This document shows positions 29,417 through 29,692 of a DNA stretch of 43,339 nucleotides, piece by piece. Below the pieces are notes generated by a model that saw only the letters and a program-made list of their open reading frames with translations, was not told where the DNA came from and searched no databases. The stretch comes from Escherichia coli. Its GTDB lineage: Bacteria; Pseudomonadota; Gammaproteobacteria; Enterobacterales; Enterobacteriaceae. Both the position numbers and the translations under genes were made by a program. The stretch lies in the NCBI RefSeq assembly GCF_003334315.1, contig NZ_QOWR01000042.1. The stretch is one strand, 5' to 3'. Position 1 is the first letter of the stretch. Each line of letters begins with the position of its first letter.

Positions 29417-29692
29417 CTACGTAATCAACCTGATTTGCCGAATCACGGCCATCGGCGATGATAGCCCCCGTAATGCGTGGTCCTTATTTCCGATAAGTTT
29501 ACTTGAGTCTTTAGCTTCCCATTTCAGCCCACTCTCCCCTGTGTGGGCTTTTTTCATTGGTCTGCCCCATCCTGAATAGCCAAACAATGGCAATGTTCCA
29601 CTTTGCAGGGATGATAATAAGGGGATCTGATTCAGAAGAGTTTTGAAAAGTTGGACCGCCATCGAGGCCTCGAACCCCGTACCATACAACAA
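29417..29692 (-). CDS. Hypothetical small protein (possibly yahM); doubtful
   Basis: 91-aa ORF in the ORF track; it is overlapped by the yahN-side terminator hairpin and by a tRNA-like structure, so coding status is uncertain. Confidence 0.3.
   Translation of the reverse strand: MLYGTGFEASMAVQLFKTLLNQIPLLSSLQSGTLPLFGYSGWGRPMKKAHTGESGLKWEAKDSSKLIGNKDHALRGLSSPMAVIRQIRLIT
29526..29555 (+). terminator. Rho-independent terminator candidate downstream of yahN
   Basis: AGCCCAC-(10-nt loop)-GTGGGCT stem followed by TTTTTT. Confidence 0.55.

Follow-up and report, generated by a model that had tools for sequence, protein, structure and literature searches.

The annotated yahM reading frame of Escherichia coli is probably an accidental frame over a non-coding islet containing an invariant tRNA-like element

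The 43,339-nt stretch of E. coli DNA analyzed here (the window) contains the region known from E. coli K-12 as prpR-yahO-yahN-yahM-yahL-yahK. Within it, the plus-strand gene yahN (28729..29400, stop codon at 29398-29400), which encodes a LysE-family transporter and served as our coding control, converges on the minus-strand yahM ORF, annotated by RefSeq at 29417..29662 as 81 codons plus a stop, with an ATG at 29662. The original prediction had concerned a longer, mechanically called version of this frame, and a 91-codon ORF beginning with a TTG at 29692 is indeed present at 29417..29692(-). All E. coli K-12 annotations present yahM (b0327; UniProt P75692) as a protein, and lists of the y-ome rank it as completely uncharacterised (PMC11551758; bioRxiv 10.1101/2025.05.13.653802). 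The papers found to mention it provide data at the transcript level, including an overlap of the convergent yahM and yahN transcripts (PMC12288877). In the Citrobacter, Salmonella and Edwardsiella yahN loci that we scanned, homology ended at the yahN stop codon, and the comparison of the islet beyond it is therefore confined to Escherichia.

Transcription toward yahM can be traced to a sigma-70-type promoter on the minus strand (29821..29848), in which TTGACA and CATAAT are separated by a 16-nt spacer and match the consensus at 11 of 12 positions. The promoter is conserved in E. coli, E. albertii, E1V33 and the SCPM lineage, and Reg-seq found it to be active and repressed by IHF (bioRxiv 10.1101/2025.05.13.653802). 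The transcription start site, which we inferred from the position of the -10 element, falls at 29814 and coincides with the 5′ end of a primer used to clone the ‘yahM 5′ UTR’ (PMC7815308 supplementary file 4). An 82-nt leader (29733..29814, minus strand), 80-88% identical in the sister lineages, extends from this site to the 5′ end of a tRNA-like element. A leaderless 60-codon ORF with a hydrophobic N-terminus, running from the start site (29814 to 29632), was considered as a coding candidate and rejected, since its fourth codon is a stop in two sister lineages and two E. coli strains carry a frameshift in it.

Two published positions bear on the ends of this transcript. According to Term-seq (PMC7815308 supplementary files 1 and 3), an RNA 3′ end falls at 29676 on the minus strand of the window (K-12 345390, + strand). 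This position belongs to the 5′ half of the T stem of the tRNA-like element, 14 nt upstream of the yahM ATG. The end is present on all three condition sheets, with ~4300-4400 reads on two of them; it has an intrinsic-terminator score of 1.28 and lies within a significant Rho termination region (PMC7815308). The Term-seq lists of the same study hold no 3′ end at the CCA (29652), where aminoacylation or the list thresholds could mask one. As its sole mapped 3′ end is in the T stem, the element is a poor fit to straightforward processing, in the manner of a tRNA, to a plentiful mature RNA. The second position is a Rho-dependent termination peak at 29481 on the minus strand (K-12 345585, + strand; PMC7815308 supplementary file 2), which is internal to the yahM ORF and precedes the first nucleotide of the stop codon by 61 nt. 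Read coverage across it fell from 264 to 45 in untreated cells, whereas the values under bicyclomycin were 480 and 510, corresponding to a Rho score of 6.23 (p=3e-33; PMC7815308).

The tRNA-like element was detected by ARAGORN at 29652..29732 on the minus strand, and its 81 nt include an encoded U-CCA tail. A tRNA-like structure had been proposed at 29642-29722 on the plus strand; its existence was borne out, but its coordinates were 10 nt off and it lies on the opposite strand to the one proposed, the same strand as the ORF. The element overlaps the first 11 nt of the annotated yahM and 41 nt of the 91-codon ORF. It carries the hallmarks of a canonical cloverleaf, which is also its minimum-free-energy fold: a 7-bp acceptor stem (CCGCCAU/AUGGCGG), the D-arm marks U8, A14, G18G19 and A21, a T arm of CGGGG-UUCGAGG-CCUCG with the T54-Psi55-C56 positions present, and the 3′ CCA. 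The ‘anticodon’ arm is non-canonical. Instead of a 5-bp stem and a 7-nt loop with U33 and a purine at 37, it has about 4 extra nucleotides before the stem and a CAGGAUU loop with A33 and a pyrimidine, U37, at position 37, and it can alternatively fold into a 7-bp stem with a 6-nt loop. The Rfam tRNA model (RF00005) gave no match to the element at E<=10 in searches of 1.7 kb and 106 nt, both of which returned chance-level Rfam matches only, while a phage argN gene used as positive control scored 53.6 bits against a gathering threshold of 29. The initiation signals of yahM are embedded in this structure: the Shine-Dalgarno sequence GAGG (29671-29668), 5 nt upstream of the ATG, is in the T loop, and the 3′ side of the acceptor stem contains the ATG itself (29662-29660).

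The element is homologous to the argN tRNA-Arg of lambdoid phages, with an overall identity of ~74%, and is closer (81-85%) to the degenerate genes found in the middle of ileZ-argN-argO clusters, namely those of phiP27, mEp460 and the plasmid pHX138.261ft_1, where the gene is labelled ‘tRNA-OTHER’. Across this family, pair 7-66 shows covariation between U-A and C-G, and G.U, A-U and G-C are all represented at pair 51-63. No phage homology was found in the flanks of the element. When the body of the yahM ORF (29401-29651) was searched in phages and plasmids, only F-prime or mislabelled chromosomal copies were recovered, and we therefore consider the ORF body not to be phage-derived. A literature search for argN, ileZ or argO, or for a tRNA-like element near yahL or yahM, returned nothing relevant.

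Downstream of the element on the minus strand, the islet consists of an unconstrained spacer (29557..29651, yahM codons 4-35) followed by a conserved non-coding block, block B (29467..29556, approximately codons 36-65). The identity of the spacer to K-12 is 82%, 38% and 39% in the three sister lineages, and its 29563-29643 segment is unchanged in only 1528 of 5115 E. coli records. Because the start of its minus-strand RNA is C-rich and G-poor, the spacer is a possible Rho loading (rut) site. Block B is 98% identical in the SCPM lineage and 91% identical in E. albertii, against 62-67% for the third codon positions of yahN, and it is unchanged in 4307 of 5174 E. coli records. Despite this nucleotide conservation, 1-nt indels separate the lineages. 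The block is absent from E1V33 and from Escherichia sp. MOD1-EC7003, and in the latter the islet is deleted.

Block B ends in a plus-strand hairpin followed by a U6 tract (29526..29554; AGCCCAC...GUGGGCU), which had been part of the original prediction and proved to be real. Its stem (29526-29532 paired with 29543-29549) comprises 7 bp and encloses a 10-nt loop, and the T6 run occupies 29549-29554. The predicted energy is -13.3 kcal/mol (z = -4.6), and none of 200 shuffled sequences folded as well. The hairpin and U6 span 126-154 nt past the yahN stop, and in a custom scan of the 400 nt past yahN they formed the first terminator-like site on the plus strand, the only other one being weaker and located at 29733. 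Our pattern scanner, which limits loops to 8 nt, missed the hairpin because of its 10-nt loop. That scanner is expected to find about 2 terminator-like sites by chance in 2.1 kb, so the hairpin alone is not statistically remarkable, and it is its conservation that supports it. The stem is kept in E. albertii and the SCPM lineage, and the C29530T change in JJ1886 leaves a G.U pair if the RNA is read from the plus strand but not from the minus strand. B2 strains have a T-run of just 5, and the hairpin with its T-run is weakened in them. A stable GC-rich hairpin with a U-run downstream of the yahN stop has the features of an intrinsic terminator, and a role as the yahN terminator is plausible. 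The supplements of PMC7815308 hold no 3′ end near K-12 34550x-34552x, although yahN was perhaps poorly expressed under those conditions.

The same block could instead, or in addition, represent an Hfq-type sRNA derived from the yahN 3′ UTR, or an independent plus-strand sRNA, a reading compatible with our preferred explanation of the locus that we nevertheless regard as somewhat unlikely. It would account for the Rho-independent hairpin with U6 and the A/U-rich stretch preceding it, for the 91-98% conservation of the 60 nt upstream of the hairpin next to neighbouring sequence that is not conserved, for the tolerance of 1-nt indels, and for a JJ1886 stem change that preserves pairing on the plus-strand RNA alone. 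However, a study that predicted sRNAs from RIL-seq data lists neither yahN nor yahM in its supplement (PMC8175672), the Term-seq lists lack a 3′ end at the hairpin, and the only Rfam family matching block B was a weak ‘Betaproteobacteria toxic sRNA’ hit that corresponds to the terminator hairpin. Furthermore, E1V33 and MOD1-EC7003 have lost the block and B2 strains carry a degraded form of it, and, as the Rho peak falls inside it, it could serve the minus-strand transcript instead.

We then asked what selection has left in the yahM frame itself, since purifying selection on its codons had been named as the result that would speak against a spurious ORF. Across 11 E. coli strains, the frame carried 15 nonsynonymous changes (including a Q12* nonsense mutation), 3 synonymous changes and 2 frameshifting one-nucleotide deletions, whereas yahN in the same strains carried 11, 30 and 0 indels, respectively (Fisher p=1.2e-4). 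Pairwise pN/pS was at least 1.5 for yahM, or undefined for want of any synonymous change, compared with 0.05-0.44 for yahN, and when all six frames were compared, synonymous changes were fewest in the annotated yahM frame, below the other five. Neither the 11-strain polymorphism nor the pairwise pN/pS thus revealed purifying selection on yahM codons. O157:H7, ST131/JJ1886 and Nissle all carry an interrupted frame, and PGAP labels it as ‘frameshifted’ in JJ1886 and Nissle and as a shortened ‘hypothetical protein’ in O157. These alleles are widespread: among the ~5100-5170 matching records of complete genomes, the exact O157 CAG-to-TAG nonsense allele occurs in 300 and the exact JJ1886 (ST131) T6-to-T5 frameshift allele in 539. 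The frame is likewise disrupted in the SCPM lineage, E. albertii and E1V33, the last of which has had its ORF body replaced while still conserving the tRNA-like element. Protein homologues of 45-131 aa were found in E. coli and Shigella only, and the protein has no Pfam domain and no NCBIfam family. Together with the Rho termination region inside the ORF, these data support the original suspicion that the ORF may be spurious.

An 81-codon frame of this kind would be open by chance with a probability of ~1% per frame, and probably about four-fifths of complete E. coli genomes retain it intact with a good Shine-Dalgarno sequence and ATG. The frame could accordingly be read as a genuine young protein, lineage-specific and of de novo origin, which K-12-like strains translate, which experiences little constraint and which certain lineages have since lost. 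The active promoter, the GAGG 5 nt upstream of the ATG and the induction of the yahM transcript when STEC adhere to epithelial cells (PMC7649339) would all suit such a gene. We nonetheless consider it improbable, given a pN/pS of at least 1, nonsense and frameshift alleles fixed in major lineages, and the failure of any sister species to keep the frame. Moreover, Rho termination inside the ORF is typical of untranslated RNA, the ribosome-binding site and AUG are buried in the tRNA-like fold, and a non-coding RNA accounts equally well for all of the transcript-level evidence.

The tRNA-like element shows the reverse pattern. It is identical at 81 of 81 positions in three non-coli Escherichia lineages (the SCPM lineage, E. 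albertii and E1V33, which are not mutually independent), although the neutral divergence indicated by the yahN third codon positions of these lineages is ~35%. At the rate of change seen in the leader, the probability of zero changes in the element would be 3e-5 to 2e-8 for each lineage. Within E. coli it is unchanged in 4822 of 5171 records, and the sole variant seen in the compared strains, in O157, converts a T-stem G.U pair to G-C. Gene conversion from prophage copies was considered as a cause of this invariance and rejected because no near-identical donor copy exists in E. coli genomes: the element occupies a median of 1 place per genome, and its nearest phage or plasmid relatives are ~85% identical.

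This invariance bears on a further reading, that the whole islet, element included, is a decaying and functionless relic of a lambdoid prophage late region, with a spurious ORF and merely incidental conservation. The homology to argN-type genes, which in phages are sited downstream of the antiterminator Q, would fit such an origin, as would the non-canonical structure that fails the tRNA model, the single mapped 3′ end in the T stem, which resembles a decay intermediate, and the deletion of the islet in MOD1-EC7003. Yet a relic should diverge like its flanks, and the element has not changed while divergence reaches 12-20% in the leader and ~60% in the spacer; the promoter is conserved and active; and the lack of a near-identical donor leaves gene conversion with no source. 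We therefore judge a functionless relic to be very improbable. Least probable of all is that the element acts in cis as a 5′-UTR structure, such as an RNase P or Rho-dependent attenuation switch controlling a translated yahM, as might be suggested by the 3′ end in a Rho region 14 nt upstream of the ATG and by the use of ‘yahM 5′ UTR + ORF’ as a premature-termination reporter by Adams et al., for the ORF to be regulated is unconstrained and often broken, and the element is conserved in E1V33 although the ORF body there has been replaced.

Taken together, these findings indicate, with a probability that we put at about 0.75, that yahM is not a functional protein-coding gene and that its ORF is an accidental open frame over a small Escherichia-specific non-coding islet that reaches from yahN to yahL/yahK. 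The sigma-70 promoter at 29848-29821 initiates minus-strand transcription at about 29814, yielding an RNA that begins with the 82-nt leader and continues into the 81-nt tRNA-like element (29732-29652), whose sequence derives from the lambdoid-phage argN/argO tRNA-Arg gene family and whose anticodon arm is probably non-decoding. Transcription runs on through the spacer until Rho stops it near 29481, inside the ORF. On the opposite strand, the hairpin and U6 (29526-29554) close the second conserved block (29467-29556) and probably terminate the convergent yahN mRNA, and the conserved 60 nt upstream of the hairpin may be a 3′-UTR element or an sRNA. We infer that, of what the yahM promoter produces, it is the tRNA-like RNA on which selection acts. 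The apparent ribosome-binding site of the ORF, formed by the T-loop GAGG and the acceptor-stem AUG, would then be a by-product of the tRNA sequence and would be occluded once the element folds.

A bolder proposal, which we hold tentatively and at somewhat less than even odds, is that the Escherichia core genome contains a domesticated, phage-derived RNA gene that has been masked by the ‘yahM’ annotation. This gene would specify a non-decoding tRNA-like RNA from its own IHF-repressed sigma-70 promoter, would be selected as strictly as a genuine tRNA, and would be one member of a broader family of tRNA-like genes, as yet undescribed, whose anticodon loops are odd-sized and which resides in the tRNA clusters of temperate enterobacterial phages. 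Such an RNA could act as a decoy, as a processing or aminoacylation substrate, or as a frameshift-type adaptor.

The distinction has practical consequences, as current dissection of the yahM promoter assumes that it drives a protein gene. Should the ORF prove not to be one, whatever has been learned about ‘YahM’ from expression, regulon and knockout studies needs to be reinterpreted, and would reflect a non-coding transcript with an invariant tRNA-like RNA. An unannotated conserved RNA gene would then exist in the best-studied bacterium and would offer a tractable way into a family of non-canonical phage tRNA-like genes. The case also illustrates how tRNA-derived sequence can mislead gene callers, since a T-loop GAGG followed by an acceptor-stem AUG imitates a ribosome-binding site.

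The closest known counterpart of the element is argN, the tRNA-Arg(UCG) gene of the ileZ-argN-argO cluster in lambdoid and Stx phages, with which it shares a near-identical acceptor stem, D arm and T arm (CGGGG UUCGAG N CCUCG) and an encoded NCCA. Unlike argN, the element is chromosomal and single-copy and has a dedicated sigma-70 promoter instead of a position downstream of Q, and its anticodon arm has extra nucleotides, A33 and a pyrimidine at 37 and lacks UCG. Neither a UCG or UCU anticodon nor a phage late-region cluster is found at the locus, where the element sits between yahN and yahL. The ‘tRNA-OTHER’ or pseudo genes of phages (IMG/VR contigs; ‘tRNA-Pseudo-TTG’ of Yersinia phage YeP1), to which ARAGORN assigns ‘anticodons’ of 2 or 4 bases, have acceptor and T arms in common with it, together with a conserved 5-bp stem, NYRAC/GUUGU, below a variable loop of 4-11 nt. 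These phage genes lie 2-3 nt from genuine tRNAs in clusters, whereas the E. coli copy is solitary and has become a fixed part of its host's core genome.

The tRNA-Other of Bacillus cereus and the tRNA-like domains of YrlA and tmRNA are likewise tRNA-shaped, conserved and separately transcribed, and do not take part in normal decoding. The element has no known sequence relationship to any of them, and the YrlA model matched the phage cluster weakly and the window not at all. The hairpin in block B resembles the intrinsic terminators of convergent genes and 3′-UTR-derived sRNAs in its GC-rich stem, its U6 and the conserved segment that precedes it, but it differs in lying inside an annotated ORF of the opposite strand and in having neither a mapped 3′ end nor Hfq evidence in the data that we consulted. 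Finally, yahM resembles other spurious or unconstrained small ORFs of the E. coli y-ome in being an orphan with neutral substitution patterns; it is set apart from them by a real transcript and promoter, and by DNA that is in part strongly conserved, probably for reasons that lie at the level of RNA.

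The locus corresponds to the E. coli K-12 region prpR-yahO-yahN-yahM-yahL-yahK, in reverse orientation relative to MG1655, and positions 29380-29860 are 100% identical to MG1655 and related strains. Subtracting a window coordinate from 375066 gives the K-12 coordinate (NC_000913.3), a conversion that rests on published distances from the yahM start and was verified on printed flanking sequence. The 91-codon minus-strand ORF at 29417..29692, with a TTG start, is present as a mechanical extension of the annotated 81-codon yahM, whose ATG lies at 29662. It is convergent with the plus-strand transporter gene yahN (28729-29400), with 16 nt between the two stops. 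The best-supported reading, to which we assign a probability of about three in four, is that selection does not maintain yahM as a protein-coding gene.

The alignment of the locus covered 11 E. coli strains across the identity range and three mutually related non-coli Escherichia lineages: a divergent genome labelled E. coli SCPM-O-B-8794 (the SCPM lineage), E. albertii NBRC 107761 and Escherichia sp. E1V33. The polymorphism statistics derive from these 11 sampled strains, together with two allele counts. The yahM frame contained 20 polymorphic columns, comprising 15 nonsynonymous changes (including Q12 to stop, found in O157), 3 synonymous changes and two 1-nt deletions, whereas yahN in the same strains carried 11 nonsynonymous and 30 synonymous changes and no indels (Fisher p=1.2e-4). 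Synonymous changes were fewer in the annotated yahM frame than in each of the other five frames, and pairwise pN/pS was at least 1.5 or undefined for yahM compared to 0.05-0.44 for yahN. PGAP annotates yahM as "frameshifted" in JJ1886 (ST131) and Nissle 1917 and as a truncated "hypothetical protein" in O157. Records of complete E. coli genomes that match the O157 nonsense allele exactly number 300, and 539 match the JJ1886 frameshift allele exactly; at least ~16% of these genomes are therefore without an intact yahM frame. Several 1-nt indels and stops disrupt the frame in both the SCPM lineage and E. albertii, and in E1V33 the ORF body has been replaced. Given the polymorphism pattern and the broken frames, the purifying selection on codons by which the original prediction proposed that a genuine gene might be recognized is thus not found. 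Its suggestion of a spurious call over structured non-coding DNA is supported by this lack of codon constraint, by the broken frames and by conservation at the RNA level.

Protein searches recovered relatives of yahM from E. coli and Shigella only (61 clusters, 45-131 aa), with no Pfam domain and no NCBIfam model, and in Citrobacter, Salmonella and Edwardsiella homology ends at the yahN stop codon. The main rival reading, which we hold to be less probable, is that yahM encodes a young, weakly constrained yet translated small protein; however, nothing in the comparative record requires its translation. K-12 yahM carries minority alleles at W32, G33, A72 and V73 (29445, 29448, 29565 and 29569), where most sampled strains have R32, V33, V72 and G73, and the reference YahM "protein" sequence is therefore itself atypical.

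ARAGORN places the tRNA-like element at 29652-29732. This element had been predicted at 29642-29722 on the plus strand; it exists, but its position was off by 10 nt and it lies on the minus strand, the same strand as the ORF. Its parts, in 5′ to 3′ order on that strand, are a 7-bp acceptor stem (CCGCCAU/AUGGCGG), U8-A9 with a D arm (GCUC-AUCAGGAA-GAGC), an irregular anticodon and variable region of 27 nt compared to the usual 22 nt, a T arm (CGGGG-UUCGAGG-CCUCG), and a 3′ end with discriminator U and encoded CCA. The 3′ acceptor strand opens with the yahM ATG, and the GAGG Shine-Dalgarno of yahM falls within the T loop, so that the gene-like signals of the ORF are tRNA sequence; on folding of the element, both would be paired or held in structure.

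Across the islet between yahN and yahL/yahK, we measured the identity of each segment to K-12 and compared it with that of yahN third codon positions, which at 62-67% serve as a near-neutral reference. The tRNA-like element was invariant (81/81) in the SCPM lineage, E. albertii and E1V33. Identities in these three lineages, in that order, were 97%, 83% and 94% for the promoter, 88%, 85% and 80% for the leader (29733-29814), 98%, 91% and 43% (lost) for block B (29467-29556, ending in a plus-strand hairpin), and 82%, 38% and 39% for the spacer (29557-29651, yahM codons 4-35). If substitutions accumulated as fast as in the adjacent leader, 81 nt would stay unchanged with a probability of 3e-5 to 2e-8 in each lineage. 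Among complete E. coli records, the tRNA-like 81-mer was identical in 4822/5171, a block B 81-mer in 4307/5174 and a spacer 81-mer in 1528/5115. The sole variant seen in the element, 29665 A to G in O157, converts the T-stem pair G51.U63 to G-C. The ORF is thus a mosaic of 4 RNA-constrained codons, ~32 codons of unconstrained spacer and ~30 codons in block B, where nucleotides are conserved and frame-breaking indels are tolerated.

Two independent rearrangements of the islet were observed: Escherichia sp. MOD1-EC7003 (L029 3681-3773) lacks 29410-29562 and 29610-30047 and with them the tRNA-like element, and E1V33 (L005 765-915), with its replaced ORF body, has lost the hairpin and retains the element and promoter intact. 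In the sampled B2 strains UPEC129, JJ1886 and Nissle (compared loci L035, L037 and L040), yahL (30075-30890) is absent and yahK directly follows the yahM promoter region, and in TUM18780 an IS3 element occupies the yahL position; all four keep the tRNA-like element and promoter.

The strong hairpin and T-run that had been proposed to terminate yahN are present on the plus strand, where 29526-29532 pairs with 29543-29549 and is followed by T6 to 29554 (-13.3 kcal/mol, z = -4.6; 0/200 shuffles fold equally well). A simple pattern scan passed over this hairpin because of its 10-nt loop, and in a custom scan it was the first plus-strand terminator-like site within 400 nt downstream of yahN. We infer its terminator role from sequence, position and conservation, since no yahN 3′ end is listed at the hairpin in the Term-seq tables of Adams et al. 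(PMC7815308). Block B may be a terminator only, a 3′-UTR-derived sRNA of yahN, or part of a minus-strand Rho terminator. The sole informative stem change, C29530T in JJ1886, leaves a G.U pair in plus-strand RNA and an A.C in minus-strand RNA, and mildly favours the plus strand as the working strand. A second plus-strand terminator-like structure, formed by the tRNA-like antisense and T5 (29652-29737, with T5 at 29733-29737; -12.5 kcal/mol), could act as a back-stop against yahN read-through.

The minus-strand sigma-70 promoter at 29848-29821 (near-consensus TTGACA, 16-nt spacer, CATAAT) outscored every other promoter-like site across the 2.1 kb scanned, with a predicted start at ~29814. The "yahM 5′ UTR" cloning primer of Adams et al. 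starts exactly there (PMC7815308 supplementary file 4), and Reg-seq confirmed a yahM transcription start with IHF as repressor (bioRxiv 10.1101/2025.05.13.653802). A 60-codon minus-strand ORF (29632-29814) has its AUG exactly at the inferred start, would be a leaderless mRNA with a hydrophobic N-terminus (MFVWGLFCILRIAL), and reads across the entire tRNA-like element; it is probably meaningless because its codon 4 is a stop in both the SCPM lineage and E. albertii, and two E. coli strains carry a frameshift in it.

Termination by Rho within an ORF is what one would expect if the RNA is not translated. A Rho termination region "internal" to yahM peaks at K-12 345585(+), window 29481, where coverage falls from 264 to 45 in the absence of bicyclomycin and changes from 480 to 510 in its presence (Rho score 6.23, p=3e-33; PMC7815308). 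On the sheets covered, the sole curated 3′ end in the yahN-yahM interval is 345390(+), window 29676, within the 5′ strand of the T stem and 14 nt before the yahM ATG; it is present on all three condition sheets, with ~4300-4400 reads on two of them, has an intrinsic-terminator score of 1.28 and lies inside a significant Rho region (PMC7815308). The convergent overlapping pairs given by ExcludonFinder include yahM-yahN (PMC12288877), and the Rho stop at ~29481 keeps the yahM-strand transcript from running antisense into yahN.

On the best-supported reading, the islet would be a non-coding unit running from promoter through leader, invariant phage-derived tRNA-like RNA and spacer to a Rho stop, with the yahN terminator block on the opposite strand. 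Conservation of tRNA grade and a dedicated promoter argue for a function of the tRNA-like RNA, and the 3′ end in the T stem, with no CCA-end signal, argues against simple tRNA-type maturation to an abundant species. In the incompletely searchable literature we found no paper on a tRNA-like element at this locus or doubting yahM.

The element is 85% identical both to a "tRNA-OTHER" between tRNA-Ile(CAU) and tRNA-Arg(UCU) on an E. coli plasmid bearing a lambdoid fragment and to the unannotated middle element of the phiP27 ileZ-(x)-argO cluster upstream of stx2e, and 81% identical to mEp460; every one of these plasmid and phage relatives, and likewise argN of the Stx2 phages, is located downstream of antiterminator Q or a methylase. 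For the remainder of the islet (29401-29651), searches of phages and plasmids gave no homologue. Scanning viral contigs with a pattern yielded 56 distinct relatives with the same acceptor and T arms, in which invariance of those arms follows by construction from the pattern; canonical tRNA-Arg genes are among them. Many relatives carry a conserved 5-bp stem NYRAC/GUUGU under 4-11-nt loops, are read by ARAGORN with 2- or 4-base "anticodons", and lie 2-3 nt from genuine tRNAs within clusters in phages. In this pattern-selected sample, pair 7-66 covaries (U-A 12, C-G 11), and pair 51-63 is G.U, A-U or G-C.

Tight tRNA clusters of temperate enterobacterial phages (IMG/VR loci L071, L096, L107, L091, L062, L053 and others) contain tRNA-like genes with argN-type acceptor and T arms, the GUUGU stem and 6-nt or 8-nt "anticodon" loops, spaced by 2-3 nt and adjoining tRNA-Met/Ile(CAU), Gly(UCC) or Thr(UGU); Yersinia phage YeP1 (L044 1202-1279) likewise has one of this arm class. 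These could be frameshift-type adaptors or non-decoding RNAs, and we found no description of phage tRNA-like genes with such loops. Lone related genes occur on conjugative resistance and virulence plasmids, namely an Enterobacter hormaechei IncC plasmid (L045 1202-1276) and a Salmonella Infantis pESI-like plasmid (L046 1201-1277). One adjoins blaSED, the PLSDB gene table, which is incomplete, annotates no tRNA at either, and matches at ~78% identity occur in 145 Salmonella plasmids.

Sub-threshold Rfam matches to YrlA (Y RNA-like; 16-21 bits) belong to the Stx-phage ileZ-argN-argO cluster (L041 1170-1355), where they are probably mere tRNA mimicry, and not to the window element, which the YrlA model does not match. 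The closer comparison is with argN, the genuine tRNA-Arg(UCG) of Stx2 phages: the two share ~74% identity, but argN passes the Rfam tRNA model at 53.6 bits whereas the islet element fails it even in a 106-nt search, and since the model separates them in this way, the islet element is a divergent relative, without decoding capacity, of a phage tRNA-Arg gene rather than a tRNA by family criteria.
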